Assembly (NCBI GenBank): GCA_047519465.1
Contig: JAPVTA010000227.1
Span: 5,687-69,686, forward strand
From: Thermodesulfobacteriota bacterium
GTDB taxonomy: Bacteria > Desulfobacterota > BSN033 > UBA1163
Direction of reading: 5' to 3'
Length of the DNA stretch: 64,000 nucleotides
Under the pieces are notes generated by a model. It worked only from the letters and a program-made list of their open reading frames with translations, was not told where the DNA came from and did no database searches. Made by a program: the position numbers and the translations under genes. Below are positions 8,461-61,303 of the stretch, piece by piece; the stretch's first letter is position 1; every line of letters starts with the position of its first letter.

Positions 8461-8470
8461 TTCCCGGATA

Positions 8471-10885: not shown

Positions 10886-10946
<61 letters not shown>

Positions 10947-10962
<16 letters not shown>

Positions 10963-12071
10963 AACACATCAAGGGGTTGCGAACCGGCAGCCCCTTTCTC
11001 ATTTCCGGAACTGTCCAAAAAGTGTCCATCCCAGAAGGAAAGAAAGGCCGAACCGTCGCTTCGCGTCAGATTTGGAATGAATTTCGCGTACCGCTTAAAG
11101 AGCATCTCCGTCGAAGCGTGCCCCATCATCTGAGCCACCCAGTTCGGATTCTCACCCGATGAAAGCATGAGCGTTGCAAAAGTGTGACGGATCTGATACA
11201 TCGTCCGATCTCTCAGGCCGGCTTTCTTCAAGGTAGGGTACCACACCCTGTTTCTCAGGTTGTCGTTGTCCAAAGGTGTGGCGTTCTTTGTCACGAAGAC
11301 ATATTCTCCCAAAAAGAAGGTCTTTGCCTTTTGATCGAGAAGGACTTTTTTGACGGGAGGAAGCATGTCGATCTCCCGGTAGCTCGACTCGGTCTTGGGG
11401 CTTGATTCGATCCCGTGGACACGGCCTTCGCGGACGCTGATCTTTCCTAAGATGAGGTCGACGTTTTTCCACTTAAGGGCGATCAACTCGTTGGGTCTCA
11501 TTCCAGTTAGAAAAGCTGTGACAAAGTAGTTGAAAGAGTCGCGGTCAACCTTCCTGAGGAACCTCTTGACCTCGTCAAAACTGAGCGGGAAGATCTCCGG
11601 CTTGGGCTCCTTGAGCCTCTTGACGAACTGACAGGGGTTCTCCTTGATTTCCTTTCTCCGGTAGGCCGTTTTGAAGAGGGTTTTGAGAGGAACCATGATG
11701 TTGTTGATCCGTTTGGGGCTGAGATGGCCAAGGGTTGAAATAAAGCGCTCGATGTCTGCCTCCATGATCCTTGAGAGAACCATCTCGCCGAAGTAGGGAT
11801 TGAGGTAACTTCTGAAGATAGAGAGATCATCCCGCAGGCTAGAAGATTTCACACGAAGCTTTCTCTGTTTGAGCCACTCCTCGGCGTGATCCTTGAACCG
11901 GATCTTTCTTTCTTCGAAGATTCCGAGAAACTCGCCCTTGGCCTTCTTGACCTCAAGATCTTTCAAGACCAGAAAAGCAAGCTCCTTCGAGGGGCCGACC
12001 TTTTTTCGTCGCCTCTTTCCGTTGATCCGAAGATCGATAAACCAGTGTCTTCCGTGTTTGAAGATTCCCAT
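10947..12071 (-). CDS. int: Tyrosine site-specific integrase (phage integrase family)
   Basis: Catalytic region 'IRHTFATLMLSSGENPNWVAQMMGHASTEMLFKRYAKF' (HxxR ... Y); N-terminal arm-binding/SAM-like domain. The 3' end overlaps the tRNA/att core. Confidence 0.85.
11012..11030 (+). promoter_or_regulatory. 19-bp motif TGTCCAAAAAGTGTCCATC (candidate recombinase/Xis arm-type site), left copy
   Basis: 18 of 19 bases identical to 33547-33565 (TGTCCATAAAGTGTCCATC), in the same orientation, each just inside an island end. Confidence 0.35.
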
Positions 12072-12414: not shown

Positions 12415-12494
12415 CTTGACTCCCTCGGTTTCTTTGATTATGTAAGATCATACTCCTGGGGGATAATTTTTGGGAAGGAGAGTAGGAAGCTAGG

Positions 12495-14033: not shown

Positions 14034-14109
14034 TTAAAGAGTATTTGTTATCGATTGAATCAAGAGAACTGATTAATCCTCATGACAATCCAAGCAATCT
14101 CCTCATAAA

Positions 14110-14138
14110 TCCACAATAAAATGTTACTTTATTGTGGA
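14110..14138. promoter_or_regulatory. Perfect 11-bp-stem palindrome TCCACAATAAA-ATGTTAC-TTTATTGTGGA
   Basis: Exact inverted repeat with a 7-nt loop, 160 bp upstream of the helicase gene. No clear T-tract, so it is more operator-like than terminator-like. Confidence 0.45.
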
Positions 14139-14299
14139 TTTGAGCTTGCTTTCTATTGATAGAAGCCTTCTCCACCATTTTGCCTAAGAAATGGGCAGAT
14201 TTAACTTTCTAAAATTAATCGAAAAATACAAAGGTAATTGTAAAAGAAGTGACACCGGTTTAGAATTTTATATCTCCTTTAACAAGAAAAAGGTAAAAA

Positions 14300-17370: not shown

Positions 17371-17549
17371 AACCCAATAGTCCTATCTACGGACGAATTC
17401 TCCGCGAAAGAATCCAATCCGTCATGTTTAGAACATTTTTGGTCAATGCTTGACCAGCCAAATTTCTCTGCCGATAAAAAACCTTTTAAATCAAAAGGTT
17501 ATAAACAGCCCCTTCTGGCACAACAAATGCTTGGTATTGTCAACATGAT

Positions 17550-18329
17550 CTATTTCTGATATAGTGAGGCAAAATCCGGTGGGGGATTCAGATATTGAAA
17601 ACTTGTCGGATGAAACCTCACCCATTGATCCTTGAAGATCTGGGCTGCTTTGAATCCAGCCGAAATCATGGCCTCTAAAGGGAGAAGGGTCTTAAGGAAA
17701 GCCGCAAAGGCTATCTTCCTCAGGGCATGGGAATCCCGTATCCTTTCCCAGACCTGATGCTCCTCTTCGGTATCAGAAAGGAGGTAACCCAGAAGAGCCA
17801 GTTGGCTGGAACCCAGTCCATTCTTGGCGAGCCAGAGTATGACATCTTGATCTTTGATGGCCACTGAGAGGAGGTAGACACATTGCTGGAGAAGAGGGAG
17901 ATCCAGGCTATGGAGACGTCCAACCTCTCGAAGTCTATTTGAGAAACGGAAGGTGTAGAACTCTGGAGCACCGTGATGAAGTGCGTGTCCGGTCTCATGG
18001 TGTATTACGGCTTGGACGATTCTCCCATCGACTCCCATCAATCTTTCTTGACAGATGTGGATCCTTGGATAGCCCATCCATGCATCATGGGTAGCCAAAA
18101 AGTCTGTTTCTTCTCCCGTAACAATGCCGAGATTTTTCTTTTCTCTCTGATAGAAGTCCTGATATTTCTCCATCGTTTTCCAGATCGATACGGACAGATA
18201 AGGAGGAGAAGAAGGTGTTTCCTCTATTTCCAGAACCTCGTTCACCCACGTCCTGACCTGGGTCAAGAAGCCCTCGTCTACCTCCTCGTGGGGTACCATT
18301 TGAATTTGTGTGCCCATTCGACAACTCAT
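17550..18329 (-). CDS. Hypothetical protein with HExxH-type motif ('VIHHETGHALHHG'); putative metal-dependent hydrolase
   Basis: His-rich HExxH-like segment; no other recognisable family signature. Confidence 0.35.
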   Translation of the reverse strand: MSCRMGTQIQMVPHEEVDEGFLTQVRTWVNEVLEIEETPSSPPYLSVSIWKTMEKYQDFYQREKKNLGIVTGEETDFLATHDAWMGYPRIHICQERLMGVDGRIVQAVIHHETGHALHHGAPEFYTFRFSNRLREVGRLHSLDLPLLQQCVYLLSVAIKDQDVILWLAKNGLGSSQLALLGYLLSDTEEEHQVWERIRDSHALRKIAFAAFLKTLLPLEAMISAGFKAAQIFKDQWVRFHPTSFQYLNPPPDFASLYQK

Positions 18330-20378: not shown

Positions 20379-20474
20379 TTGACATACAACTCCCTTGTTT
20401 CTATAGTCGATCCATCCTGAAGCGGCTTCTTATCAGTTTTTTTCCTTGACATACAACGGGGGGGTTCCTATACT
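20379..20474 (+). promoter_or_regulatory. Two tandem near-consensus sigma70 promoters (TTGACA-17 bp-TATAGT and TTGACA-17 bp-TATACT)
   Basis: -35 at 20379-20384 with -10 at 20402-20407; -35 at 20446-20451 with -10 at 20469-20474. The second spacer contains a G7 run. They lie upstream of the lipoprotein gene. Confidence 0.5.
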
Positions 20475-20517
20475 AAAAACGCAATTAGTGACAAATTTTT
20501 TTAAGGAAGGGGATAAT

Positions 20518-21075
20518 ATGAAATTAAGGGTATCCTTTATTGTCGCATTTTTAATCGCCTGCCCCATCCTTCTCACATCTTGCGCGTCGGGGACGGCGTA
20601 TCAAAAGGCCGATGCGCCCGCAACGAAGGCGGTGATATACGTATACCGCCCATCGCGTTTGCTCGGCGCTGCCCTGTCATATTCGCTGTGGGATGTCACG
20701 AATGCGATCGTGACGAAGAAAGTCTCCATCGTACCCAACGATGCCTTCGGCTATAACCCGGCAAAAGATACGCGCATCGACCAATTCAGAGAAGGCATGA
20801 AGTACAGCAAAAAGCTCGCGCGGCTAGTCAACGGGAGTTATTACGCCTATACCGTAGACCCGGGTACCTACTACTTCATTGTGGAGAATACTTCTGGCAT
20901 CGGCAAAGGATGGGGGGTCACCGATGCGGTCACCAAAGTCGAGGCGGAGGCCGGCAAGCGGTATTTTTTCTACTCCTGGGTTGGAGGCGGCGGTCGGGCT
21001 TATATGGAGACCAGGACTGTGGAGAAGGGTGAAAAGGAGATAACCGGGTGCAAACTAGTAGTCGAAGAGAAATAA
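20518..21075 (+). CDS. Lipoprotein of unknown function
   Basis: 'MKLRVSFIVAFLIACPILLTSCASG' is a signal peptide plus lipobox (LLTSC). RBS GGAAGGGGA precedes the start. Confidence 0.55.
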   Translation: MKLRVSFIVAFLIACPILLTSCASGTAYQKADAPATKAVIYVYRPSRLLGAALSYSLWDVTNAIVTKKVSIVPNDAFGYNPAKDTRIDQFREGMKYSKKLARLVNGSYYAYTVDPGTYYFIVENTSGIGKGWGVTDAVTKVEAEAGKRYFFYSWVGGGGRAYMETRTVEKGEKEITGCKLVVEEK

Positions 21076-22491: not shown

Positions 22492-24783
22492 ATGGAACAT
22501 TCAGGAGACGATCACATGACCCCAGAGGAATTTAAACGCAAGCTCACCGCCATTCTGAGTGCAGATGTCAAAGGTTACAGCCACCTCATGGGGGAAGATG
22601 AGGAAACCACTCTCCGGACGCTGAATGCCTACAGGGAGGTGATGGGGAGCCTCATCCAGCAACACCGGGGTCGAGTCGTCGACACTGCAGGAGATAGCGT
22701 ATTGGCGGAGTTTGCCAGCGTGGTGGATGCGGTTCAGTGCGCCGTGGAGATTCAGCAGGTGCTGAGGGCGAAGAACGCCGTGGTGCCTGAGAGCCGCAGG
22801 ATGGAGTTTCGGATCGGGATCAATCTTGGAGATGTGATTGAGGAGGGAGATACGATTTACGGAGATGGAGTGAACATTGCGGCCCGACTCGAAGGCTTGG
22901 CGGAGGCAGGCGGGATCTGCATCTCCGAGACTGCCTATCAACAGATTGAGAACAAGCTACCCCTCCGGTATGACTACCTTGGTGAGCACGAGGTGAAGAA
23001 CATTGCCAAGCCGGTGCGCGTTTACCGTGCGCGAATAGAGCCGGAGGCTGCTCCTTCCAAATTGGGTAAGGAGAAAAAGCCTGTCGGGAAACCGTTATCC
23101 AGGGCTGTGTTGGGTATAATAGCCATCGTTGTGATAGCCGGGGCAGTAATCCTTTATCAGTTTGTCCTCCGTTCCTCTCCATCTAAGACTGAGGTAGCCT
23201 CCAAGGAGAAGATGGCTTTCCCTTTGCCCGACAAACCCTCCATTGCCGTGCTTCCATTTGTAAACATGAGCGACGATGCCAAGCAGGAATATTTCAGCGA
23301 CGGAATTACTGAGGACCTGATAACGGACCTCTCCAAGGTCTCCGGTGTCGTGGTGATTGCTCGCAACTCGACCTTCACTTACAAGGGAAAGCCCGTAAAG
23401 GTCAAGCAGGTTGCTGAAGAGCTCGGCGTCCGTTACGTTCTCGAAGGGAGTGTACGCAGGGCCGGTGATGAAGTTCGCATCAATGCCCAGCTCGTCGATG
23501 CTCTGACCGGTCATCACCTATGGGCAGAACGATATGACGGCAAAATAGATAAGATTTTTTCCTTGCAGGATCAAATCACCAAGAAGATTGTTTCTGCCCT
23601 ATCGGTGAAGCTGATCGGGAGTGAAAAGGAACTGGTCGTCCAAAAGGGAACGAATAATGCGGCGGCTTACGATGAATTTCTGGGAGGATGGGGACACTAT
23701 CTCCGGTTCACCCCGGAGGATTTCTCGAAGGCAGTAATTTCCTTTAAAAAGGCCATCGAGCTGGACCCAAACTATGGGCGGGCTCATGCCGCTCTGGCTT
23801 TGGTTTACTGGACCGGTAGTACACAACCCGCATTGCTTCGGGGACTGGAGATCGTTTTCGAGGAGGCTCGTTTGCGGTCCCGTGAATACTTGCAGAAGGC
23901 TATGAAGCAGCCTACATCCATTGCTTACAATGTTTCCTCGCAGATGTATCTTTACGGCCGTCAGCATAAAGAGGCGATTTCCGAACTGGAACGGGCCCTC
24001 TCCATGGATCCCAATGATCTTTCCTGCATTCAATCCATGGGTTTGACCTTGAGCATGGCCGGCAGGCCGAAGGAGGCGATTGAATATATCAATAGAGGAA
24101 TGCGGTTAGACCCACAAAACCCTTCCAGATATTTAGCTCTACTCGGGATGGCCCATTTTTGCATGGGGGAATTACAGGAGGCTGCGAGTTTGAGCGAAAA
24201 GGCATTGCGACTGAATCCGGAAAATGTGGGAATGGGAGTCCAAGTTGCGGCATTCTACGGGCTTATGGGTCGTGACCAGGAAGCCCGTGAGACGCTTGCA
24301 AATGTCAGAAAAAAGTTGCGAATTTTTCCCCTGGATGTTCAAATGTGGAGCTATTACTTCAGGGACCGCGCAGTTGCAGATCGGTATGCGAAGGGCCTTC
24401 TCAAGGCAGGGGTGTCGGGCCAACCATCCGGATATTTACCCGCGTTCAAAGGAAACCAGCTTACCGGAGAAGAAATCAGGACTCTACTCTTCGGTTCGAC
24501 AATCACCGGAATTCGTTTTATTAGGGGTATCAATGGTACGCGGTGGTGGATTGATTGGAAAAAAAATGGAGAATGCATTTGGCATGGGGTAATTACTTCT
24601 GATTCTGATCGTGGAAACAGCCGGATTGAAGGCGATATGATCTGCACTCAGTATCAAAAGAACTGGTGGGGACTCGAAGGTTGTGCGACTGTTTTCAGAA
24701 ATCCCTCAGGCACGCCCGAAACTAAAGACGAGTATTTCTTTGCGCATGACATCGGATTTCAGACATTCTCGCCGGTGCACTGA
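22492..24783 (+). CDS. Class III adenylate/guanylate cyclase domain protein with transmembrane segment and C-terminal TPR repeats
   Basis: Cyclase homology domain 'LTAILSADVKGYSHLM ... GDSVLAEF ... RIGINLGDVIEEGDTIYGDGVNIAARLE'. TM helix 'VLGIIAIVVIAGAVILY'. TPR-like repeats in the C-terminal half. Confidence 0.8.
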   Translation: MEHSGDDHMTPEEFKRKLTAILSADVKGYSHLMGEDEETTLRTLNAYREVMGSLIQQHRGRVVDTAGDSVLAEFASVVDAVQCAVEIQQVLRAKNAVVPESRRMEFRIGINLGDVIEEGDTIYGDGVNIAARLEGLAEAGGICISETAYQQIENKLPLRYDYLGEHEVKNIAKPVRVYRARIEPEAAPSKLGKEKKPVGKPLSRAVLGIIAIVVIAGAVILYQFVLRSSPSKTEVASKEKMAFPLPDKPSIAVLPFVNMSDDAKQEYFSDGITEDLITDLSKVSGVVVIARNSTFTYKGKPVKVKQVAEELGVRYVLEGSVRRAGDEVRINAQLVDALTGHHLWAERYDGKIDKIFSLQDQITKKIVSALSVKLIGSEKELVVQKGTNNAAAYDEFLGGWGHYLRFTPEDFSKAVISFKKAIELDPNYGRAHAALALVYWTGSTQPALLRGLEIVFEEARLRSREYLQKAMKQPTSIAYNVSSQMYLYGRQHKEAISELERALSMDPNDLSCIQSMGLTLSMAGRPKEAIEYINRGMRLDPQNPSRYLALLGMAHFCMGELQEAASLSEKALRLNPENVGMGVQVAAFYGLMGRDQEARETLANVRKKLRIFPLDVQMWSYYFRDRAVADRYAKGLLKAGVSGQPSGYLPAFKGNQLTGEEIRTLLFGSTITGIRFIRGINGTRWWIDWKKNGECIWHGVITSDSDRGNSRIEGDMICTQYQKNWWGLEGCATVFRNPSGTPETKDEYFFAHDIGFQTFSPVH

Positions 24784-25424
24784 ATATATTAATAACCCGA
24801 ACATGGCTTATCTGGTTTGTTTCTCGGCTCCCTGATCAAGGCAGGATTGTGGTTCAGGTAATTTGGTAGAAGGTGGGTATATCTGGTGTAAATCTTCTGT
24901 TTTTAAACCGCCAAAAAAGGTTGGATTTGATTTTCATATATCTATGCGGCCTGATGATTTCTATCGGAAATCTTCGACTCTTTAAGCATGCCTTGATTGA
25001 AGAGTAGTAGGTGGAAGCGTTAGCCGAGAGGCGAGCCGGAACTCCCTTTTTTCGGAAGGCTCAATATCTGCTATACACCTTGCCTTTTTCAAAACCAGAA
25101 AAGCTATGATTTGAAGATCGAATAGAAACATTTCGGGGATATTTTGAGTAAGTTTGTATTGGCAAGCTATCAGGCCGTCAGAGGCCATGAAGATTAGATC
25201 AATTTGGTCTCCATAACTTTTCCCATACCTATTTTGGCGTCAGGGATGAGAAATGGAATCCGGGTTCTCCCTGAGGCTGTGGATTTTAAATTTCGGTTCG
25301 AAATTGTACATCCCTACTATAAATCAATAAGTTTTTCCCTTAAACTTCTTCAACGTGGATCTCATAAATTCACACCGAGCAGGCTCGCGAGCCGAAAGAA
25401 AATTTTCACAATTAAAAATTTTTC

Positions 25425-25461
25425 TTGACAAATTAGTTTACTTTTGGTAAACGAAGTTTAC
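25425..25461 (+). promoter_or_regulatory. Putative promoter (-35 TTGACA) overlapping palindromic operator GTTTAC-N5-GTAAAC plus a third GTTTAC half-site
   Basis: Read directly upstream of the XRE-cupin regulator start at 25467. Confidence 0.35.
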
Positions 25462-25466
25462 ACATC

Positions 25467-26021
25467 ATGGATGAGCTAAGAATCGGTAGAAAAATACGTC
25501 AGATTCGGCTTCAAAATAAGCTCACGCTCCTCGAGATTGCTCAAAAGACAGGTTTCACCAAAGGTTATCTTTCCTTGATTGAGCAGGGAAAGAAATCTCC
25601 CCCTATTGCCACACTGAGCAAAATTGCCAAGGCCATTCTTGTGGATATGGGGGCCTTTTTTGAACAGAAAAAGCCAGAAGATAGTATCCTAATAGTGAGG
25701 AAAGGGAAGAGGGAGGTTGTTGTCAGGGACGGGTCCATCTTTGGATACCAGTATGAGTCCATCGCTCCCACGAAAATGCGTAAGAAAATGGAACCTTTTA
25801 TCATTACCCTCCCATCTAAAAGCAAAGAGGAGAATCGATTTGATCATGAGGGAGAAGAGCTCTTTTATGTATTGGAGGGCAGGATTAATTTCTTCTACGG
25901 AGGTAAGAAATACTTTTTAGCGGAGGGAGATTGCATTTACTTCGATTCCAGTATTCCTCATCGGGGCGAGGGGGTTGGGAAAAAACCTGCAAGAGCTTTG
26001 GTCGTCATTTATACACCTTGA
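25467..26021 (+). CDS. XRE-family HTH transcriptional regulator with C-terminal cupin domain
   Basis: 'IRLQNKLTLLEIAQKTGFTKGYLSLIEQGKKSP' is an XRE HTH; C-terminal 'HEGEELFYVLEGRINFFYGGKKYFLAEGDCIYFDSSIPH' is a cupin. Confidence 0.75.
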   Translation: MDELRIGRKIRQIRLQNKLTLLEIAQKTGFTKGYLSLIEQGKKSPPIATLSKIAKAILVDMGAFFEQKKPEDSILIVRKGKREVVVRDGSIFGYQYESIAPTKMRKKMEPFIITLPSKSKEENRFDHEGEELFYVLEGRINFFYGGKKYFLAEGDCIYFDSSIPHRGEGVGKKPARALVVIYTP

Positions 26022-26073
26022 GAGACCTGTGTACGGAAATGGGAGAATCAACTTTAAAAAAGGAGGTGCAGTC

Positions 26074-27294
26074 ATGAAGAAAAAGGAGGTTGGATTTATT
26101 TTAGGGGTATGCGGGATAGGACTCATGTTGGTAGGGTTCATTTGCGGAGGGCCGGTCATGGCCCAAGATACCATCAAGATTGGAGCAGTGCTACCTCTCA
26201 GCAAAGCCGCCTTTGCTCAGGCTGGAGAGGAGCAGAGGCGGGGATTGCTAATGGCATTGGAGGAGATTAATCAGACAGGAGGCGTTCTGGGGAAAAAGTT
26301 GGAAGTGATTATCGAAGATGACACTGGAGAGCCCTCTGTCGGTATTGCCGCCGCAGAGAAACTCCTTACCCGGGATAAGGTTGTGGCGTTGATTGGAGGC
26401 TATTCCAGCACCATTACGTTCGCACAGCTCAACGCGATTCAACGGCTGGAGCCCTTCGTCGCATGGGTAGGGGCTTCCTCGACCAAGGTGGAGCACGAGT
26501 TCGGACCAAAGCGATGGTTTTTTCACTATCATCCATGGGATTATCATCGTCAATCGACCATCCGGGATTTTCTGCTCACAATTTCACCGAGGCCCAAGAC
26601 TGTTGCCGTAGCCTATGAGGACGGGATCTATGGTACGACTAGCCGTGACTATGTAGTGAAATATTTAAAGGAGAAGGGGTTCGAGATTGTCTTCGACGAA
26701 CGTTTCAAGAGCGGTTCCTCCGATTTTACGCCAATGCTCACCAAGATTAAGAAGGCCAATCCAGATGTCTTCTATTGGGTAGCTTATGCTGGCGATACCA
26801 CCCTGATCATGAAACAGGCAAAGGAGATTGATTTAAACCTCAAACTCTTTCTTTCGGTAGCAATCAATTTCCCGCAATACAAAGAATCCCTTGGGGCAAC
26901 TGGAGACTTTGTGGCGGGTGTTGATGTGTGGATTCCGGGTATGAAACTTCCGGAGACGATTAAGTGGATGGAGAAGTTCAAGAAGGCCTACCCAGGACGG
27001 ACCCCTGAGTATTGGGCCCCTCTTGCCTATACCAATTTGATGACCGTCGTGGATGCCATCAAGAGGGCAGGGTCGACAGAGAAGGGAAAACTAATCGCCG
27101 CAATGGAGAAAACCGACTATAACTCACCTTTGGGAAGAATGACCTTCAAAAAGAGCGAGGAAGGTGGGCTGCATCAGGCTATTGATGAACAGATCATTAC
27201 CCAATGGCAGGCGGGAGTTTCACAAGTGGTATATCCTGCCAATAAAGCGACTGGTAAATTGATCTATCCAACACCGAACTGGAAAAATCGCTAG
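26074..27294 (+). CDS. ABC transporter periplasmic substrate-binding protein (LivK/Peripla_BP_6 family)
   Basis: Signal peptide 'MKKKEVGFILGVCGIGLMLVGFICGGPVMA', 'IKIGAVLPLSKAAFAQAG' and 'VALIGGYSSTI'. Confidence 0.8.
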   Translation: MKKKEVGFILGVCGIGLMLVGFICGGPVMAQDTIKIGAVLPLSKAAFAQAGEEQRRGLLMALEEINQTGGVLGKKLEVIIEDDTGEPSVGIAAAEKLLTRDKVVALIGGYSSTITFAQLNAIQRLEPFVAWVGASSTKVEHEFGPKRWFFHYHPWDYHRQSTIRDFLLTISPRPKTVAVAYEDGIYGTTSRDYVVKYLKEKGFEIVFDERFKSGSSDFTPMLTKIKKANPDVFYWVAYAGDTTLIMKQAKEIDLNLKLFLSVAINFPQYKESLGATGDFVAGVDVWIPGMKLPETIKWMEKFKKAYPGRTPEYWAPLAYTNLMTVVDAIKRAGSTEKGKLIAAMEKTDYNSPLGRMTFKKSEEGGLHQAIDEQIITQWQAGVSQVVYPANKATGKLIYPTPNWKNR

Positions 27295-27384
27295 AAGGTT
27301 GCGCTCGTTGAATAAATTCTAACTCTACCTGATTCCCCCAACTGTTAGGGAGAATAACGGGTTAGGAACGGAAAAGAGTCTATT

Positions 27385-28263
27385 ATGGACTGGGCTAGTT
27401 TCTTTCAGAGCCTTGCGAATGGAATTCTGATCGCCGGACTTTATGCGGCAGTAACTTTGGGTTTAACACTTGTCCTTGGAGTTATGGGAATTGTCAATTT
27501 TGCCCATGGTGAACTGGTCATGCTGGGGGCCTATAGCACCTTTTGGTTATTTACCCTATTGCGAATTGATCCAATGCTGTCGATCGCCATGAGTGGCCTG
27601 ATCCTGTTCATCATTGGACTCCCGATCTACCGTTTCACCATCCGACCGATCCTGAAGGATCCTCCGCTCAATCAACTCCTCCTCACCCTTGGCATCTCCA
27701 TCTTTCTTCAGAACTTAGCAATGATCCTCTGGAAGACGGATTCGAGGTCAGTTATCACCTCCTATTCTGGTACGTCACTCCACCTCGAGATGGTTAACAT
27801 AGGGTTGACACGTTTGATCACTTTCTTGATTGCTGTGGTGTTAACGGTCTTCCTTGTCTTCTTTCTCTACAAGGCAAGGCCAGGAAGGGCGATGCGAGCG
27901 GTCAGTGAGAACAATACTGCTTCTTGGCTGATCGGCATTAATGTTCAAAAGACCTATCTTTTGGCTTTTGGGGTGGCCTCAGGTCTGGCGGGGGCCTCTG
28001 GTGCCCTGGTTAGTACTATCATGTATACTTTCCCAATGGTGGGTTTCAAATTAAGTCTGAAGGCCTTCTGTATCCTGATCCTTGGGGGATTAGGTAATAT
28101 TCCGGGCGCTTTATTTGGAAGCCTGATACTAGGGTTGACCGAATCTTTTGTTGGGACCTATGTTCCAGAAGGATCAGGATGGGCTGAAGGGATCTCTTTT
28201 ATGCTTATTATGATTATTCTCGTTATTAAACCTACTGGTCTGGCTGGAACTCGGCGGGAGTAG
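27385..28263 (+). CDS. Branched-chain-amino-acid-type ABC transporter permease (LivH-like)
   Basis: Multi-TM protein with a LivH-like pattern ('NFAHGELVMLGAY'). Confidence 0.8.
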   Translation: MDWASFFQSLANGILIAGLYAAVTLGLTLVLGVMGIVNFAHGELVMLGAYSTFWLFTLLRIDPMLSIAMSGLILFIIGLPIYRFTIRPILKDPPLNQLLLTLGISIFLQNLAMILWKTDSRSVITSYSGTSLHLEMVNIGLTRLITFLIAVVLTVFLVFFLYKARPGRAMRAVSENNTASWLIGINVQKTYLLAFGVASGLAGASGALVSTIMYTFPMVGFKLSLKAFCILILGGLGNIPGALFGSLILGLTESFVGTYVPEGSGWAEGISFMLIMIILVIKPTGLAGTRRE

Positions 28264-28268
28264 AAGGG

Positions 28269-29213
28269 ATGAACCGTCCATTCTCTTGGAAGACAGTTAT
28301 TCTTCTGATAGCCCTGGCCATTTTTCTGATCTTCTATCCCAAGCTGGTTGATTCCTATTTTCTCCACCTCACTGTAGCAGCCATCTTGGCGATGATTATG
28401 GCAAGCAGTTGGGATATTCTAGCAAGGACAGGACAGGTCTCGGTAGGTCAGGCCGGGCTTTTTGGGATAGGCGCTTATACAGCTGCCCTTCTGTACCAAT
28501 GGGTTCACATTCCCCCAGTGCTAGGGATGCTAGCTGGGGCAATCCTGGCTATGATCGTTGCTGTTTTCCTTGGATATCTTACCTTACGTCTCCGTGGGAT
28601 CTACTTCGCCATTACGACCATTGCGTTTGCCGAAGCCTTATCTGTGATCTGGCTAATGACCCCAGGGGTTACAGGAGGAGCGATGGGCGTTTCCACTCCT
28701 CCTCTTTTTAATGGCAATCGGGAGCACGCCTACTATCTCATTTTGCTTATCCTTGCTCTTGTTATTTTTACAGTCTGGTTGATTGAATCATCGAGGCTTA
28801 ATTTTGCTTTTACGGCGATTCGTGAGAATGAAGAGGTAGCCAATGTTATGGGCATCAATCCGACCCGGTATAAAGTTCTGGCCTTCATAATCAGCGCTTT
28901 TTTTACGGGATTTGCCGGAGGATTTTACAGTCACTATAACACCTACATCATTCCATACGAGGTATTTGGCCTGGGAATTTCTATCGCCTGTCTCGTCATA
29001 CCGATCTTTGGAGGTCTCTATACCATTGCTGGACCAATCATCGGTACAATCTTGATCAAGGCGATCGAAGAATATTTGAGGGTTACCTTTTCTTATGGAC
29101 ATCAAATTGCTTACGGTCTGATTCTGGTGGTGGTCGTATTATTTATGCCAGAAGGGGTGCTCGGACTTTGGAAGAAAAGGATTCTTCCGTTCTTTGGCCG
29201 TGTCCGGCAATAA
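28269..29213 (+). CDS. Branched-chain-amino-acid-type ABC transporter permease (LivM-like)
   Basis: Multi-TM protein with 'GQVSVGQAGLFGIGAYTAALL', typical of LivM. Confidence 0.8.
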   Translation: MNRPFSWKTVILLIALAIFLIFYPKLVDSYFLHLTVAAILAMIMASSWDILARTGQVSVGQAGLFGIGAYTAALLYQWVHIPPVLGMLAGAILAMIVAVFLGYLTLRLRGIYFAITTIAFAEALSVIWLMTPGVTGGAMGVSTPPLFNGNREHAYYLILLILALVIFTVWLIESSRLNFAFTAIRENEEVANVMGINPTRYKVLAFIISAFFTGFAGGFYSHYNTYIIPYEVFGLGISIACLVIPIFGGLYTIAGPIIGTILIKAIEEYLRVTFSYGHQIAYGLILVVVVLFMPEGVLGLWKKRILPFFGRVRQ

Positions 29214-29262
29214 CGGAAATAAGAGGAACTTTGTTGCTATTGAGAGGGAACGTTCGCGGACA

Positions 29263-30021
29263 ATGGAGAACATATCTTTACTTCAGGTAAAAAAGCTCAC
29301 CAAACATTTTGGTGGCCTTGCTGCAGTTCAGAATGTCAGTTTTGAGATTCGTCGTGGAGAGATTGTGAGCCTGATTGGCCCTAATGGTGCGGGCAAGACA
29401 ACAATCTTCAATCTTATCTCAGGGGTCTATGCCCCGGATTCGGGAGAAATTCTGCTCGACAATGAAAACCTTTTAGGCCGAAGGCCCTTTGAGGTCTGCC
29501 AGAAGGGAATCGGGCGAACTTTCCAAATTATGCAGCCCTTTCTACACATGACAGTTCTCGAAAATGTTATGACCAGTGGCTTATTCGGGAGAGTGCCGAA
29601 GATCTCTATGAGTCAAACAGAAGAGGAGAGCATAGAACTCTGCCTACTCGTGGGGTTGGGTGATAAACGAAAGGCCCTCCCAAGGAATCTTACCGTGGCA
29701 GACCAGAAGAGAATCGAAATTGCTCGGGCCCTTGCCGTCAAACCTAAACTCCTTTTGCTCGATGAAGTAATGTCCGGGCTTACTCCCATCGAAACTGGTG
29801 AGGCAATTAAGTTGGTTCGTCGACTGAGAGAAATTGGGACAACGATCTTTTTGATCGAACATGTGATGAAGGTCGTTATGGACATTTCGGATCGGGTCAT
29901 TGTCCTTCATCATGGAGAAAAGATTTCAGAGGGAACGTCTACAGAAGTGGTAAATGATCCAAAAGTAATCGAAGCCTATTTGGGAGAGCATGTAGATGAG
30001 TCAGGGGAGGCATCGTGCTAG
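29263..30021 (+). CDS. ABC transporter ATP-binding protein (LivG-like)
   Basis: Walker A 'GPNGAGKTT', signature 'LTVADQKRIEIARAL', Walker B 'LLLLDEVMSG'. Confidence 0.8.
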   Translation: MENISLLQVKKLTKHFGGLAAVQNVSFEIRRGEIVSLIGPNGAGKTTIFNLISGVYAPDSGEILLDNENLLGRRPFEVCQKGIGRTFQIMQPFLHMTVLENVMTSGLFGRVPKISMSQTEEESIELCLLVGLGDKRKALPRNLTVADQKRIEIARALAVKPKLLLLDEVMSGLTPIETGEAIKLVRRLREIGTTIFLIEHVMKVVMDISDRVIVLHHGEKISEGTSTEVVNDPKVIEAYLGEHVDESGEASC

Positions 30022-30722
30022 TTTTAGTAGAGATTGATGTCTATTATGGGAACATTCAAGCCCTATGGCAAGTGAGCCTAAGTGTAAAAGAGGGAGAAAT
30101 GATCGGGATTGTCGGATCGAATGGCGCCGGAAAATCGACGATCCTTCGAACAATCTCAGGGCTGATTACCCCCAAGAGAGGGAGTATTGAGTTCGACTCA
30201 AAACGGATTGACTCTCTTAGCCCCGACGAGATTGTCCGTCTTGGAATCTCCATGGTCCCTGAAGGGAGAGAGCTTTTCCCGAGAATGAGCGTCCTTGAAA
30301 ACCTTGAACTGGGGGCGGCTTATATCAATAGGGCCTACACTCAAACAAAGGAGTCTTTAGAGTGGGTCCATTCTCTTTTCCCTATTCTTCAGGAAAGATC
30401 GAAGCAACTTGCAGGAACCCTTAGTGGCGGGGAGCAACAGATGGTTGCTATTGGAAGGGCCCTGATGTCTCGACCTAAGATTCTTATGCTCGATGAACCA
30501 TCTTTAGGATTAGCCCCCCTTATGGTCACCGAAGTGTTTAAAACAACCGCCAAAGTCAGTCATGAGGGAGTAACGATCCTTTTGGTCGAGCAAAATGTAA
30601 GGCAGAGTCTAAAGATGGCACACCGTGCATATGTCCTTGAGAATGGTCGAGTCGTTATGGAAGGGATGGGAAGGGACCTGATGATCAATAAGCATGTGAA
30701 GGAAGCCTACTTAGGACTATAA
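30015..30722 (+). CDS. ABC transporter ATP-binding protein (LivF-like)
   Basis: 'GSNGAGKST', 'LSGGEQQMVAIGRAL' and 'ILMLDEPS'. Confidence 0.8.
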   Translation: MLVLVEIDVYYGNIQALWQVSLSVKEGEMIGIVGSNGAGKSTILRTISGLITPKRGSIEFDSKRIDSLSPDEIVRLGISMVPEGRELFPRMSVLENLELGAAYINRAYTQTKESLEWVHSLFPILQERSKQLAGTLSGGEQQMVAIGRALMSRPKILMLDEPSLGLAPLMVTEVFKTTAKVSHEGVTILLVEQNVRQSLKMAHRAYVLENGRVVMEGMGRDLMINKHVKEAYLGL

Positions 30723-30750
30723 TTCTTTTTATCTTTTGAGGAGGTTTGCA

Positions 30751-32019
30751 ATGGAGAAGACCAGTCGGATTTCGGGATTTCATAAAATGGGCTTGGATGA
30801 GAGGCTGAAGATCGTTCAAGCCTTCTCTGACTTAAAAGAAGAAGATCTCAAGATCTTGACGAAAGAGGGGGCTCTCAATTTTGAGACAGCCAACCGCATG
30901 ATTGAGAATGTAATCGGAACCATCCAGCTCCCGATCGGAATTGCCACAAATTTTCTAATCAACGGGAAGGAATACCTCATCCCAATGGCCATCGAGGAAC
31001 CTTCTGTTGTCGCTGCAGCAAGCAATGCTGCCAGATTCGCAAGAAGTGGTGGAGGATTTTTTGTGACGAATACTGGTCCTGTTATGATAGCACAGATTCA
31101 GTTGGTCCACATCCCCAGTGCCCATGCCACACGGATCGCCCTTTTTGAAAGGAAAGAGGAAATCTTGGAGGTGGCAAATGCTCAGGATCCAATGCTGGTC
31201 AACGTTGGAGGAGGTGCAAAAGATGTTGAGATCAGGGTCCTCGATACACCTCTTGGTGAAATGGTGATCATCCACCTAATCGTCGATACCCGGGATGCCA
31301 TGGGCGCCAATGCAGTCAACACCATGGCCGAGGCATTAGCTCCCTTCATTGAGGAATGGACAGGAGGAAGGGTCTATTTAAGAATCCTTTCCAACCTTGC
31401 GGATAGAAGGCTAGTCAGAGCTAGGACAAAGGTAACAAAAGAGGCTTTGGGTGGGGAGGATGCCGTTGACGGCATCGTTTATGCGCAGAGTTTTGCCGAG
31501 GCTGATCCGTACCGTGCAGCAACTCATAATAAAGGCATCATGAATGGAGTTATTGCGATTGTCATTGCTACTGGAAATGATACCCGCGCTATCGAGGCAG
31601 GAGCTCATACGTATGCCGCAAGGTCAGGTCAATATAGCCCACTGACGACCTGGGAGAAAGATGCTGATGGAAATCTTGTAGGAACCCTAGAACTTCCCAT
31701 GGCTGTGGGACTGGTCGGTGGGGCAACGAAGGTGAATCCAGTCTCACAAGTAGCAGTTAGGATACTCGGTGTGAAATCAGCTATAGAATTAGGAGAGATC
31801 GTTGGCGCAGTAGGACTGGCTCAAAACCTAGCAGCCCTAAGAGTTTTGGCTACTGAGGGGGTTCAAAGGGGGCATATGTCACTTCATGCTAAAAACATCG
31901 CTGCGATGGCCGGTGCAACAGGGACGCTCATTGATGAAGTGGCCAAAAGGCTAGTCGAAGAGAAAAAGGTCAGGGTGGATCGGGCCAAAGAGATTTTAAA
32001 AGAATCGAAGAAAGGTTAA
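30751..32019 (+). CDS. mvaA: Hydroxymethylglutaryl-CoA reductase, class II (NAD(P)-dependent; degradative MvaA-like)
   Basis: 'ENVIGTIQLPIGIATNFLINGKEYLIPMAIEEPSVVAA' and 'DTRDAMGAN' are class II HMGR signatures; ~423 aa. Confidence 0.8.
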   Translation: MEKTSRISGFHKMGLDERLKIVQAFSDLKEEDLKILTKEGALNFETANRMIENVIGTIQLPIGIATNFLINGKEYLIPMAIEEPSVVAAASNAARFARSGGGFFVTNTGPVMIAQIQLVHIPSAHATRIALFERKEEILEVANAQDPMLVNVGGGAKDVEIRVLDTPLGEMVIIHLIVDTRDAMGANAVNTMAEALAPFIEEWTGGRVYLRILSNLADRRLVRARTKVTKEALGGEDAVDGIVYAQSFAEADPYRAATHNKGIMNGVIAIVIATGNDTRAIEAGAHTYAARSGQYSPLTTWEKDADGNLVGTLELPMAVGLVGGATKVNPVSQVAVRILGVKSAIELGEIVGAVGLAQNLAALRVLATEGVQRGHMSLHAKNIAAMAGATGTLIDEVAKRLVEEKKVRVDRAKEILKESKKG

Positions 32020-32026
32020 GAAACAA

Positions 32027-32941
32027 ATGGACCTTCCCAAATCAGTCACTATCGTTGAAGTTGGCCCGCGTGACGGACTTCAAAACGAGGCCAATTTCGT
32101 GCCAACTGAGCATAAGATTGAGTTAATCAATCGTTTATCAGAAACTGGACTAAGACGCATTGAAATTACATCCTTTGTTCATCCCAAAGCGATCCCTCAG
32201 CTTCAGGATTCGGAGGAGATAGTAAAAAGAATTGAACGGAAACCCGGTATTATTTACTCTACCCTTGTTCCGAACGAGAAGGGTTTACAAAGAGCTTTAG
32301 CTGCTGAAGTTGAAGAGATTGCTCTCTTCGTTTCTGCGTCGGAGACGCACAATCAAAAAAATGTAAAAATGTCCATCAGCGACTCACTGAAAGGATTTCG
32401 AAATATCGCTGAAAAGGCACTTACTCACGGAATCCGGATGAGAGGATACGTCGTGACAGCTTTCGGGTGTCCTTATGAGGGGAGGATAAATCCTGAAAAG
32501 GTAGAGTCCATTGTAGATGAATATAGGACTTTAGGTGTTCATGAAATTGCATTAGGGGATACAACTGGAATGGCTAATCCCGTTCAGGTGAGTCGAATGG
32601 TGAGCAGAATTCTTCGGCGATTGGATGGAAAGACTAGCCTTGCCCTTCATTTTCATGATACTCGCGGTGCTGCCCTGGCAAATATTTTGTCAGCTCTCCA
32701 AGAGGGAGTTGTGATTTTTGATGGCTCCATCGGAGGTTTGGGTGGATGCCCTTATGCTCCAGGGGCCTCTGGGAATGTTGCAACAGAGGATCTGGTGAAC
32801 ATGTTAGAAGAAATGGGAATCGAAACAGGTATTGATCTCAACAGATTGATCGGTTGTGCTAGGTACGCCAGAACAATCATCCAAAAAGACCTTCCAAGTC
32901 ATCTCCTCAGCTCAGGAACAATTTGCTGGGAAGGGACTTAA
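32027..32941 (+). CDS. mvaB: Hydroxymethylglutaryl-CoA lyase
   Basis: 'VTIVEVGPRDGLQNE' is the N-terminal HMGL motif; later 'HFHDTRG' and 'GGLGGCPYA' are present. Confidence 0.8.
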   Translation: MDLPKSVTIVEVGPRDGLQNEANFVPTEHKIELINRLSETGLRRIEITSFVHPKAIPQLQDSEEIVKRIERKPGIIYSTLVPNEKGLQRALAAEVEEIALFVSASETHNQKNVKMSISDSLKGFRNIAEKALTHGIRMRGYVVTAFGCPYEGRINPEKVESIVDEYRTLGVHEIALGDTTGMANPVQVSRMVSRILRRLDGKTSLALHFHDTRGAALANILSALQEGVVIFDGSIGGLGGCPYAPGASGNVATEDLVNMLEEMGIETGIDLNRLIGCARYARTIIQKDLPSHLLSSGTICWEGT

Positions 32942-33546
32942 ATTTCCTTTCTTTCAGATTGTGGTCCTCCCTGTATTTAAGTTTTTCATTGTCACTAAAA
33001 AAGAAAGGGAATTTTTCTATCAGGGATTGACAATCCACAAGCGAGTGAAAGCGAAAACCGGAGGGGAAGAGGAGAAATCTATAGACTGCGAATTACGATA
33101 TCGAAGGAGTTTCGATATCTGCTATAAACACTCCTTTTTCGATACCTCAGGAAAGTTACGGTTGGGTATTCATATATTCAATGTAGACTAGATGAAAGAA
33201 AGCCGAAAATTTGCTTACTCTGGAAGCATCAGGCATGCTTTCGCTCTGATAATCCTAAACTGCTGAGCCTTGGAATATCTGAACATTGGTAGAGTATGCA
33301 TCAAAGTCTAATTTTCATTTTCCCTTTGTCCGAGGAATTTTCTTATGCATTACACTTAAACCGTTTCTTGAAGGATTCATTGATCAGGTTGGTTATAGAT
33401 CCAAAAAAGATCTGCTGGTCGCAAGAGGGAGTTTGGTCAGAAAGCTATTTATTCAAGTATAAGTGTACACGGTGCCTTAAGGACTGAATCAAAGAGTTGA
33501 TTCATGATTGATTTTCAGGGAAAGGAAGATTGGGGGATCTACCTGG

Positions 33547-33707: not shown

Positions 33708-33752
33708 CTCATAACCCGAAGGTCGCTAGTTCAAATCTAGCCCCCGCTACCA
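33708..33752 (+). repeat. attR: 45-bp direct repeat of the tRNA-fMet 3' half, from the anticodon loop to CCA
   Basis: Identical to 10918-10962. The next ~20 bp (A-CA-TCAAGGGGTTGCG) also resemble the sequence following the genuine tRNA. Confidence 0.8.
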
Positions 33753-33773
33753 AGCATTTCAAGGGGTTGCGCA

Positions 33774-34280
33774 TTATGCGTAACCCTTTTTTTTGGAACT
33801 GCTACTGCTTTTGCTACTGCCATTTTTTGCCACCTCCCTGGTCCGGGCAGGTAACGCCCCAGCAAGGAGGCTCGCCTGCTTCCGCAGAAACTCCTGGTCG
33901 TCCCCGAAAAGGTGACCGTAAACATCCAGAGTAAAAGCCACGGAAGAATGCCCCATTTGAAACTGGCTGCCCCAGACCGTGCGCCGCACAGACAACTGTC
34001 TTGTCGCGGGTTGAAAATCGGGCCACTGCAAGCCCCACAATTCACCGGCCCGTACCCCGGTCATGATCGCCGTCCGAAAAGCCGTCTGATAATGCTTCTC
34101 CGTATTGTCGACCAATTGACTTAATTCGGCCGGCGTTAGAATATCAATCTCATGGTGACGGTTCCTGGGCCGCTGCAATTCCGCAGCCGGATCTGTCTTG
34201 AGATAACCCCATCGCGTTGCCACCCGGAACATCATCTTGAGAAGTGCAATCTGGTTGATAGCCGTCTCGGGCGCGGCCAC
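33774..34280 (-). pseudogene. Integrase remnant (tyrosine recombinase C-terminal fragment with internal deletion)
   Basis: Contains 'AFRTAIMTGVRAGELWGLQWPDF' (start of the catalytic domain) joined almost directly to 'MGHSSVAFTLDVYGHLFG' (the terminal Tyr region). The HxxR-containing middle is missing. It occupies the same position relative to attR as int does to attL. Confidence 0.55.
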
Positions 34281-60417: not shown

Positions 60418-60427
60418 GATCTCGTCA

Positions 60428-61300: not shown

Positions 61301-61303
61301 GGA

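Follow-up and report, generated by a model that had tools for sequence, protein, structure and literature searches.

A putative mevalonate uptake and catabolism cassette in a tRNA-Met genomic island of a Thermodesulfobacteriota bacterium

The mvaAB operon of Pseudomonas mevalonii encodes a NAD-type class II HMG-CoA reductase (HMGR; MvaA) and, directly after it in the same orientation, an HMG-CoA lyase (MvaB). The operon is under the control of the H-NS-like protein MvaT, and we know of no transporter gene that has been identified for it. The NADH-preferring HMGRs of Burkholderia cenocepacia, Delftia acidovorans and Ruegeria pomeroyi have been characterized mainly by kinetic and structural means, and class II HMGRs of the NAD type are marked by an Asp residue that opens the cofactor helix (PMC13488460, PMC12292504). 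In the Liv family of binding proteins, SAR11_0655 binds L-pyroglutamate (PMC11485210). HMGR and lyase are a known pair, but an importer and a regulator tied to this pair do not appear in the literature that we searched. Here, we describe a locus that combines all of these components within a 64-kb window, the whole stretch of DNA that was analysed. We propose that it is probably a self-contained, horizontally mobile operon through which mevalonate, or a very close primary-alcohol 3-hydroxy acid, is taken up with high affinity and catabolized.

Cassette organization and genomic island

The region at 25425-32941 consists of a promoter with a palindromic operator and eight genes that run from the regulator to the HMG-CoA lyase (Table 1). 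Pfam and NCBIfam profile searches of the open reading frames assign a family to all eight proteins, and each element that an earlier note on this DNA had described is recovered to the base. The LivG-like ATPase may alternatively start at the ATG at 29263, as its orthologs are called at 249-253 aa, and the HMGR is identical to P0001.

Table 1. Features of the island and the cassette, in window coordinates
Feature	Coordinates	Strand	Basis
tRNA-Met (CAT), island integration target	10886..10962	+	ARAGORN
attL, left 46-bp direct repeat, 3' part of tRNA-Met	10918..10963	+	repeat search and alignment
Island tyrosine integrase, 374 aa	10947..12071	-	Phage_integrase 2.4e-17, Phage_int_SAM_3
TTGACA, candidate -35 hexamer of the cassette promoter	25425..25430	+	read from sequence
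Palindrome GTTTAC-N5-GTAAAC, proposed XRE-cupin binding site	25436..25452	.	5 nt past TTGACA
Third half-site GTTTAC	25456..25461	+	3 nt past the palindrome, 5 nt before the regulator ATG
XRE-type HTH and cupin regulator, 184 aa	25467..26021	+	HTH_3 2.3e-11, Cupin_2 2e-17 (Pfam)
HAAT/Liv-family periplasmic binding protein, 406 aa	26074..27294	+	Peripla_BP_6 2.6e-62 (Pfam)
LivH-like ABC permease	27385..28263	+	BPD_transp_2 5.7e-39 (Pfam)
LivM-like ABC permease	28269..29213	+	BPD_transp_2 1.3e-38 (Pfam)
LivG-like ABC ATPase	29194..30021	+	ABC_tran and BCA_ABC_TP_C (Pfam); LivG model 220 bits (NCBIfam)
LivF-like ABC ATPase	30015..30722	+	ABC_tran 3.9e-35 (Pfam); LivF model 268 bits (NCBIfam)
Class II HMG-CoA reductase (HMGR), 422 aa	30751..32019	+	TIGR00532 498.5 bits, cut-off 260
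HMG-CoA lyase, 304 aa	32027..32941	+	NF004283 422 bits, cut-off 246
attR, right 46-bp direct repeat, end of the 22.8-kb island	33708..33753	+	repeat search and alignment

The cassette sits in a real 22.8-kb island at tRNA-Met, which confirms the mobile island and the horizontal acquisition that had been proposed for it. The integrase gene abuts tRNA-Met, and the 46-bp repeat is present in the window as two perfect copies (0 in 100 shuffles). Furthermore, a relative (L178) retains the empty site, in which tRNA-Met is directly followed by the equivalent of window positions 33708-33959. A second, degraded integrase lies directly to the right of attR, which suggests that this tRNA has been the target of more than one insertion in succession.

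The eight genes are found in identical order in six distinct loci. Flanks were compared for this window, L085 and L091 and are unrelated, so that the genomic contexts of the cassette number at least three. Only the cassette has DNA homology to L085, L091, L094, L095 and L096; this homology starts at approximately 25270-25436 (25419-25424 in most) and ends at approximately 32865-33180. Regulator, five importer genes, HMGR and lyase constitute one conserved unit, in agreement with the module of the earlier note.

We inspected 12 distinct loci of the HMGR clade at an identity of at least 69%. A binding-protein-dependent importer is located beside HMGR in all 12 loci, as a Liv-type ABC system in seven and a TRAP DctPQM system in five, with an HMGL-like lyase in 10 of the 12 and an adjacent ortholog of the XRE-cupin regulator in nine. 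The Smithella locus has no adjacent lyase. In deeper relatives, TRAP replaces the ABC importer, and HMGR, the lyase and the same regulator family remain. Such an importer swap around constant enzymes is the pattern predicted by a substrate-uptake role, and the TRAP system in five loci points to the uptake of a carboxylate. In Azospirillum, Tistlia, Tropicimonas and a Saprospiraceae MAG, HMGR likewise has an orthologous TRAP system on its flank.

Enzymes, importer and regulator

The HMGR conserves E83, S85, R261, T264, H265, N266, K267, N271, D283 and H381 (P. mevalonii numbering) and is identical to the P. mevalonii enzyme throughout the entire DPYRAATHNKGIMNG stretch. Given that these residues and this stretch are unchanged, the protein has the substrate pocket of a genuine HMG-CoA/mevalonate enzyme. 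In structure-sequence matches, the HMGR scores 494 bits against P. mevalonii 1QAX and 483 bits against Delftia 6DIO, compared with 323 bits against the S. pneumoniae enzyme. The cofactor helix (DPMLVNV) carries the NAD-type residues to which the earlier note had drawn attention, with Asp at the D146 position and neither the Ser nor the Arg of the NADPH motif, and its positions 3 and 7 (Met and Val) do not fit the Dx(V/L)xxxL motif as published. The same Asp is found in nearly all archaeal relatives of the HMGR and therefore does not discriminate catabolic from biosynthetic use.

By its sequence, the partner enzyme is a bona fide, canonical HMG-CoA lyase with the catalytic motifs: it matches B. 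subtilis 1YDO with an E value of 1.2e-93, and the GPRDGLQNE, HFHDTRG and GGCPYAPG motifs are aligned. The pair had been likened to the degradative mvaAB genes of P. mevalonii. This likeness holds for the adjacency of HMGR and lyase and for the shared catalytic residues but does not extend to the phylogenetic position of HMGR, which is 56.5% identical to MvaA versus 64-67% to archaeal enzymes, its nearest in reference genomes and presumed to be biosynthetic. The HMGR clade, separate from that of MvaA, is monophyletic in 54 of 60 neighbor-joining bootstraps, which favor no single deep placement for it.

What kind of ligand does the importer recognize? The binding protein gene has a ribosome-binding site and encodes a signal peptide. 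Its product scores 113 bits against the NCBIfam LivJ/K model (cut-off 477) and is 20-22% identical to E. coli LivJ/LivK; the alignment to LivJ (20% identity) has Ser79, Thr102 and Tyr202 retained, Glu226 replaced by Val and Tyr18 replaced by Ala. Because the carboxylate contacts of LivJ are kept and the ammonium-binding Glu226 is substituted by Val, the residues support the earlier suggestion that this Liv-family protein may bind a non-amino-acid ligand. Its best solved relative is SAR11_0655 (PDB 8WCH; E 1.7e-33), and that of the TRAP binding protein in the relatives is a Thermus lactate binder, which has a hydroxy-monocarboxylate ligand.

The XRE-cupin regulator scores 71.6 bits against the PuuR model of NCBIfam, below the cut-off of 211, and its orthologs (48-71% identity) adjoin HMGR in Liv-type and TRAP-type clusters alike. 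The palindromic operator reported earlier in the promoter is confirmed as the sole match to GTTTAC-N5-GTAAAC in the window (0.03 expected). The half-sites are the same in the L091 and Smithella loci, with one base different in the L091 spacer, and both are changed symmetrically to GTTAAC-N5-GTTAAC in L085, L094, L095 and L096. The operator is thus conserved, and where one half-site differs, the other has changed with it in a symmetric, compensatory way. The position of the third half-site is occupied by GTT(T/C/A)AC in L085, L091, L094, L095, L096 and L002. The spacing between TTGACA and the palindrome is kept in L085, L095, L096, L091 and L002, and the sequence farther upstream is unrelated. 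A consensus promoter scan did not report the TTGACA promoter because its -10 element is weak.

Proposed pathway and alternative readings

The earlier proposal that the locus mediates the uptake and catabolism of mevalonate or a related hydroxy acid is supported by the conservation of the unit and by the importer swap; within this range, we infer mevalonate itself as the importer ligand from sequence and gene context. The periplasmic binding protein would first bind the acid, which would then be imported through the LivHMGF-like ABC system. HMGR would operate in the oxidative direction as a NAD-type class II enzyme (mevalonate + CoA + 2 NAD+ to HMG-CoA + 2 NADH), and the lyase would split HMG-CoA into acetyl-CoA and acetoacetate. 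The XRE-cupin protein would act as a ligand-sensing repressor on the palindrome, which would overlap the -10 element of the promoter that drives the regulator gene itself, and would keep the operon off until a pathway metabolite fills the cupin domain. To use acetoacetate, the host would require a CoA-transferase or synthetase gene at another locus, as no acetoacetate-activating gene is found in the 64-kb window. We infer the flux direction, repression rather than activation and the fate of acetoacetate. Anoxic habitats are not known to be rich in free mevalonate.

The cassette may instead handle a different hydroxy acid, with HMGR and the lyase acting on that acid or a derivative, although we consider this unlikely. 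The candidates are mevaldate, 3-hydroxy-3-methylglutarate, the acid formed when mevalonolactone is hydrolysed, and a different omega-hydroxy or 3-hydroxy acid. In L092 and L093, the transporter ortholog, whose binding protein is 86% identical and has the same predicted pocket residues, precedes a class-III-like, primary-alcohol-type Zn alcohol dehydrogenase in place of HMGR and lyase. The importer could therefore accept a wider range of ligands than mevalonate, or a different one. In other relatives, HMGR is linked to AtuA or AcnX-type dehydratase genes, which have no assigned substrate. However, every HMG-contacting residue of HMGR is as in the P. mevalonii enzyme, and the lyase is of the canonical type. 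For 3-hydroxy-3-methylglutarate, a CoA-transferase or ligase would be required, which the cassette does not contain, and HMGR would be superfluous.

Two further readings detach HMGR from the importer, and both are far less probable. HMG-CoA lyase is the terminal enzyme of leucine degradation, and the five transporter proteins are all members of the Liv/HAAT family, an annotation that they also carry in public sources; the importer would then be an ordinary branched-chain amino-acid system and the HMGR adjacency incidental or a redox valve. This is very improbable given the low LivJ/K score and Val226 of the binding protein, the lactate-binder-like TRAP systems that stand in for ABC in relatives, the mobility of the cassette as a whole, with flanks that are unrelated from locus to locus, and the lack in the cassette of isovaleryl-CoA dehydrogenase, methylcrotonyl-CoA carboxylase and methylglutaconyl-CoA hydratase. 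Slightly less credible still is a biosynthetic HMGR that supplies mevalonate for isoprenoids beside an unrelated importer and lyase, as the closeness to archaeal sequences might suggest and the bootstraps, with no single deep placement favored, would allow. Neither HMG-CoA synthase nor thiolase nor mevalonate kinase is found in the window, and none of the three is annotated beside HMGR in the clade loci with called genes listed. Moreover, a lyase that destroys the HMGR substrate begins 7 nt past the HMGR stop codon, importer, HMGR and lyase stay linked in 10 of the 12 loci despite altered importer family and gene order, and the clade is monophyletic in most bootstraps.

Comparison with known systems

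The island resembles other tRNA-targeting tyrosine-integrase islands in its terminal tRNA-Met, abutting integrase, perfect direct repeats and empty site in a relative, but no excisionase or transfer genes are identified in it and its base composition is not distinctive. The importer shares the five-component architecture, the protein families and Ser79, Thr102 and Tyr202 with E. coli LivJ/LivK-LivHMGF. It differs in a binding protein far below the equivalog cut-off, with Val and Ala at positions 226 and 18, and in its co-inheritance with HMGR and lyase rather than with amino-acid genes. SAR11_0655 provides a precedent for a Liv-family ligand other than a branched-chain amino acid (PMC11485210), although its similarity is distant and its ligand and genomic context are different.

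The HMGR is of the NAD(H) class II type with Asp first in the cofactor helix, like the NADH-preferring enzymes of B. cenocepacia, D. acidovorans and R. pomeroyi (PMC13488460, PMC12292504); the cited work on these enzymes is kinetic and structural, and for the window HMGR the gene context supplies a candidate pathway. Several alphaproteobacterial HMGRs adjoin an orthologous TRAP importer in our survey. The cassette matches P. mevalonii mvaAB in the order of a NAD-type HMGR and a same-strand lyase, in every catalytic and HMG-binding residue, and in the predicted chemistry from mevalonate via HMG-CoA to acetyl-CoA and acetoacetate. It departs from mvaAB in the 56.5% identity and separate clade of its HMGR, in its island-borne location in an anaerobic Thermodesulfobacteriota MAG, and in two additions, the ABC importer of five genes and the XRE-cupin regulator together with the operator.

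Cassette structure and genomic setting

The cassette comprises eight co-directional genes at 25467-32941 that were delineated by ORF listing and profile searches (see the table below). The intergenic spacing ranges from small overlaps to 90 nt and is thus compatible with a single transcript. The element coordinates proposed in the earlier note proved exact to the base in the ORF listing, profile searches and sequence reading, and its cassette limits coincide with the limits of DNA homology to other copies of the cassette. An identical copy is located on an NCBI MAG contig (GCA_047519545.1). Moreover, five further distinct loci (L085/L086, L091, L094, L095 and L096) have all eight genes in identical order and encode HMG-CoA reductases (HMGRs) that are 88-95% identical to that of the window. 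DNA homology of the window to these five loci starts at 25419-25436 (25270 for L091) and stops at 32865-32951 (33180 for L091). In the three loci examined, the flanks are unlike one another: the window copy is embedded in a tRNA-Met island, the L085 copy is bordered by TonB and FecCD genes at one end and by isocitrate-dehydrogenase-family and molybdopterin genes at the other, and the L091 copy, on a 1.28-Mb contig, is flanked on either side by IS3 copies. The cassette is inherited as a single unit. The host organism is an uncultured MAG, and the region yields no megablast match to E. coli genomes and plasmids.

Features of the cassette and its surroundings, in window positions unless a comparison locus is named
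Feature	Position	Evidence or remark
TPR-fused Peripla_BP_6 gene	3598-5439	lipoprotein-like
tRNA-Met	10886-10962	
attL, 46-bp direct repeat	10918-10963	last 46 bases of the tRNA region
Tyrosine integrase	10947-12071 (-)	intact; abuts tRNA-Met
RecD2-like helicase and Cas4-like PD-(D/E)XK nuclease	14300-17370	PADLOC typeIV_RecD, 288 bits; genes overlap
Cyclase-TPR protein	22492-24783	763 aa; N-terminal nucleotide cyclase domain, long TPR array
TTGACA hexamer	25425-25430	5 bases before the palindrome
GTTTAC-N5-GTAAAC palindrome	25436-25452	sole match in the window, 0.03 expected
Segment around the regulator start	25456-25469	ATG only ~14 nt past the candidate -10; no Shine-Dalgarno
XRE-HTH and cupin regulator	25467-26021	profile search
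Peripla_BP_6 binding protein	26074-27294	ATG at 26074 after AGGAGG ribosome-binding site; signal peptide present
Two BPD_transp_2 permeases, then LivG-like and LivF-like ATPases		profile searches
Class II HMGR	30751-32019	ATG 30751, stop ends 32019; TIGR00532 498.5 bits, cut-off 260
HMG-CoA lyase	32027-32941	ATG 32027; NF004283 422 bits, cut-off 246
attR, 46-bp direct repeat	33708-33753	perfect second copy of attL
Integrase remnant	33774-34280	degraded, truncated; immediately right of attR
Co-directional catabolic cluster, 23 kb	34473-57388	TetR, E1alpha/E1beta/E2/E3 2-oxoacid dehydrogenase, Zn-ADH, SDR, enoyl-CoA hydratase, two acyl-CoA dehydrogenases, MmgE/PrpD, two AMP-ligases, second Liv-type ABC system, OYE-type enoate reductase
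Third complete Liv-type ABC system	57527-62068	Val replaces LivJ Glu226 in its binding protein as well
L002 (Smithella) duplicated segment	4890-5050; 20440-20594	promoter/operator/leader of the binding-protein gene; second copy downstream of the regulator gene
L002 (Smithella) AcnX pair	16083-17768	after the second Liv-type ABC system beside HMGR
L087 AtuA and ferredoxin genes	8250-9925	directly upstream of HMGR, as in L118 and L119
L091 IS (DDE_3)	8295-9333	between operator and regulator gene
L091 IS200-like Y1 transposase	11270-11737	inside the operon, between binding-protein and permease genes
L092 transporter locus	10001-16329	transporter genes, then class-III/NDMA-type Zn alcohol dehydrogenase; no HMGR or lyase there
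L093 transporter locus	10001-16324	as L092

The setting of the window copy was compared with that of a relative (L178/L179) whose flanking core genes display 83-89% DNA identity. In the relative, LptF and a complete tRNA-Met are followed directly by the equivalent of window 33708-33959, and the intervening 22.8 kb is thus an insertion. The assignment of the cassette to a mobile island in the earlier note is therefore borne out by the tRNA gene, the adjacent integrase, the flanking direct repeats and the absence from a related genome. The island also encodes the RecD2-like helicase with its Cas4-like nuclease, which may form a defence or DNA-processing pair, the cyclase-TPR protein and hypothetical proteins. 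The cyclase-TPR gene lies just upstream of the cassette, and its product gives weak matches to Pycsar cyclases.

Past 33959, the window departs again from the relative, which suggests repeated insertions at tRNA-Met. At the position of the catabolic cluster, L178 has CHASE2, SH3 and M48 genes instead, and the region right of attR, with its integrase remnant, may thus be an older island. The 2-oxoacid dehydrogenase/acyl-CoA cluster was considered as part of the cassette pathway and rejected, since it is situated beyond attR and no other copy of the cassette has it.

Reductase and lyase

The window HMGR is a 422-residue protein, identical to the database protein P0001, and consists of a soluble HMG-CoA_red domain (PF00368, 3.9e-113) without a membrane domain. 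As class II we counted enzymes with a soluble catalytic domain of ~420-430 residues that exceed the cut-off of the class II model; with the class I model TIGR00533, the window HMGR scores 67 bits (cut-off 442). The best-scoring solved structures are NADH-type proteobacterial enzymes (P. mevalonii 1QAX, 494 bits; Delftia 6DIO, 483 bits), and the NADPH-type Gram-positive structures score well below (S. pneumoniae, 323 bits; E. faecalis, 312 bits). In MAFFT and HMMER alignments, the catalytic residues Glu83, Lys267, Asp283 and His381 and the HMG-binding residues Ser85, Arg261 and Asn271 (P. mevalonii numbering) are all identical, and Thr264, His265 and Asn266 are also unchanged in the alignment. 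Judged by these residues, the pocket is that of a genuine HMG-CoA/mevalonate enzyme. The lyase gene directly follows on the same strand, as in mvaAB. Its product aligns with B. subtilis HMG-CoA lyase 1YDO (E 1.2e-93) over the GPRDGLQNE, HFHDTRG and GGCPYAPG motifs, contains the catalytic Arg-Asp, His-x-His and Cys motifs and scores above the curated family cut-off.

Cofactor preference in HMGRs is read from a helix that follows Dx(V/L)xxxL in NADH enzymes and (H/Y)xSxxxR in NADPH enzymes (PMC13488460), and replacement of the first helix Asp by Lys in the Ruegeria HMGR raises NADPH activity 53.7-fold (PMC12292504). The window helix is D-P-M-L-V-N-V. Of the NAD-type residues sought in the earlier note, the decisive Asp is kept, and the Ser and Arg of the NADPH motif are absent, but positions 3 (Met for V/L) and 7 (Val for L) deviate conservatively from the published motif. 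We read the enzyme as a putative NAD(H)-type HMGR. The same Asp occurs in nearly all HMGR relatives, archaeal ones included, and is thus uninformative about catabolic versus biosynthetic use.

Among the matches listed, the window HMGR is 56.5% identical to P. mevalonii MvaA and 64-67% identical to archaeal enzymes; the matches listed from the GTDB and metagenome scans are mostly 55-67% relatives, and closer relatives were reached individually via exact-protein look-ups. A neighbour-joining tree places the window clade, recovered as monophyletic in 54 of 60 bootstraps, apart from the clade of P. mevalonii and Comamonadaceae HMGRs, so the parallel that the earlier note drew with mvaAB does not extend to membership in the MvaA clade. 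Clustering with biosynthetic HMGRs, which the earlier note regarded as evidence against catabolism, is neither clearly present nor clearly excluded: the enzyme forms its own clade and is nearest in identity to archaeal proteins, and its deeper placement is unsupported. The catabolic reading is carried by the gene context. An archaeal origin of the window HMGR is not claimed, because only 8 of 60 replicates recover the split that joins its clade to archaea and Firmicutes, and the deep branching is not settled.

Importer, ligand and operator

The strongest argument that the importer feeds HMGR comes from the replacement of one importer family by another. A binding-protein-dependent importer adjoins HMGR in all 12 distinct loci inspected in the window HMGR clade (seven Liv-type ABC, five TRAP), an HMGL-like lyase is present in 10 of the 12, and in nine an XRE-cupin regulator with 48-86% identity to that of the window is adjacent. 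Smithella sp. PtaU1.Bin162 (HMGR 81% identical) combines the orthologous Liv-type ABC system, without an adjacent lyase, with a second ABC system, AcnX-type dehydratase subunits and the regulator. At greater distances, TRAP systems occupy this place: L087 (79%) has AtuA, an AtuA-ferredoxin and DctPQM; L175 (72%) is ordered DctPQM-HMGR-lyase; L176 and L177 (70%) regulator-HMGR-lyase-DctPQM; and L089 (69%) regulator-HMGR-DctPQM-lyase. HMGR is also flanked by orthologous TRAP systems, whose DctP is 47-51% identical to the L089 protein, in Azospirillum, Tistlia, Tropicimonas (with a lyase in the cluster) and one Saprospiraceae MAG. TRAP systems mediate carboxylate uptake, and among solved structures the HMGR-linked DctP is closest to the Thermus lactate-binding protein 2ZZV (E 3e-61). 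Because the importer family is replaced around the same enzymes and regulator, the importer appears to supply HMGR, and its substrate appears to be a hydroxy-carboxylate.

In three loci from Firmicutes MAGs (L006, L011 and L068, at ~6-11 kb in each), HMGR likewise clusters with the genes for both subunits, large and small, of an AcnX-type dehydratase, for AtuA and for an AtuA-type ferredoxin. Such AcnX/AtuA-HMGR clusters may represent a second, lyase-independent anaerobic route for mevalonate-like acids.

The binding protein is consistent with such a substrate. The window transporter has all five components of the HAAT family (binding protein, two permeases and two ATPases), which is what a leucine reading would build on. 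However, the binding protein shares only 20-22% identity with E. coli LivJ and LivK and scores 113 bits with the LivJ/K model, whose cut-off is 477. In the alignment, Ser79, Thr102 and Tyr202 of LivJ, which we take to be carboxylate contacts, are kept, and Tyr18 is replaced by Ala. Glu226, which presumably holds the alpha-ammonium group, is replaced by Val in a gap-free, well-anchored stretch and is Val in all three orthologs examined there; the residue types at these numbers agree with the E. coli LivJ sequence. The best solved relative is SAR11_0655 (8WCH), an L-pyroglutamate binder. These predicted pocket residues fit a ligand that has a carboxylate but lacks an alpha-amino group. The genome is unusually rich in Liv-family binding proteins.

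We consider that the cassette probably mediates mevalonate uptake and catabolism, and we give little weight to a leucine or biosynthetic reading of it. A ligand that is a closely related hydroxy acid instead of mevalonate is unlikely. The loci L092 and L093 count against the mevalonate reading. Their binding protein is 86% identical to that of the window, with the same pocket residues and ABC genes, and the transporter is accompanied by an alcohol dehydrogenase (TIGR03989, 405 bits, below the cut-off of 440) in place of HMGR and lyase. Such an arrangement remains compatible with a ligand whose primary alcohol can be oxidised, but it leaves room for a different or broader ligand. A GTTCAC-N5-GTTTAC element beside a TTGACA is located upstream. 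As for the products of the mevalonate route, no acetoacetate-activating enzyme is encoded within the 64-kb window.

The candidate promoter is conserved with the cassette. The GTTTAC-N5-GTAAAC form of the palindrome occurs in the window, L091 and the Smithella loci (L002-L004), and L085/L086, L094, L095 and L096 have GTTAAC-N5-GTTAAC, in which both half-sites are changed symmetrically and the dyad symmetry is thus kept. The TTGACA (where the contig extends that far) and a third half-site, GTTTAC just before the regulator ATG in the window, stay in register across the loci, and the upstream DNA is not related. The Smithella binding-protein gene is directly preceded by this promoter and operator. 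A consensus promoter/terminator scan performed no better than on shuffles and did not pick up the TTGACA promoter. The regulator combines an N-terminal XRE HTH with a C-terminal cupin, as in PuuR-type proteins, and its PuuR score of 71.6 bits, below the cut-off of 211, indicates that it is not PuuR itself. The palindrome spans the spacer and -10 region of the candidate promoter, from where a dimeric regulator would block transcription; we infer repression rather than activation. The regulator itself may be translated from a nearly leaderless mRNA.

Significance and relation to known systems

Concrete, testable candidates for an importer, a sensor and an operator emerge from the cassette and its TRAP-based relatives. 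The cassette would bring the pathway into strict anaerobes that live in methanogenic communities, with archaea relying on the mevalonate pathway as neighbours. It also hints at what NADH-type HMGRs may do physiologically in bacteria that have them outside any obvious isoprenoid pathway. If the proposal is true, metabolic engineering of isoprenoids could draw on a natural mevalonate-responsive regulator with its operator and on a high-affinity importer. More tentatively, and with some doubt about the proposal as a whole, the Liv-type ABC system and its TRAP relatives could jointly be the first genetically defined bacterial mevalonate importers and the XRE-cupin protein a natural mevalonate-pathway-responsive repressor with a defined operator, in a mobile cassette that would enable syntrophic anaerobes to scavenge the mevalonate their archaeal partners release, via an HMGR lineage closer to archaeal than to classical degradative enzymes.

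Mevalonate breakdown by HMGR and lyase has been known for decades from one Pseudomonas strain. The uptake, sensing and spread of mevalonate use in bacteria are largely unaddressed in the searchable literature, outside which most subscription journals lie; this literature contains no bacterial mevalonate transporter gene and no HMGR linked to TRAP or ABC importers. The cassette would work like the HMGR-lyase pair of P. mevalonii mvaAB. However, it is not an ortholog set of mvaAB, given its separate HMGR clade, added importer, XRE-cupin regulator, anaerobic host and island carriage; in P. mevalonii, mvaAB is regulated by MvaT, where the cassette has the XRE-cupin protein. Likewise, its transporter belongs to the HAAT family by homology but departs from the Liv amino-acid system in both model score (113 bits versus 477) and the Glu226-to-Val change. 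The chemistry is old. What is new, and can be tested directly, is the set of importer, sensor and operator candidates, their distribution over different phyla with an ABC-to-TRAP swap, and the syntrophic-anaerobe setting.
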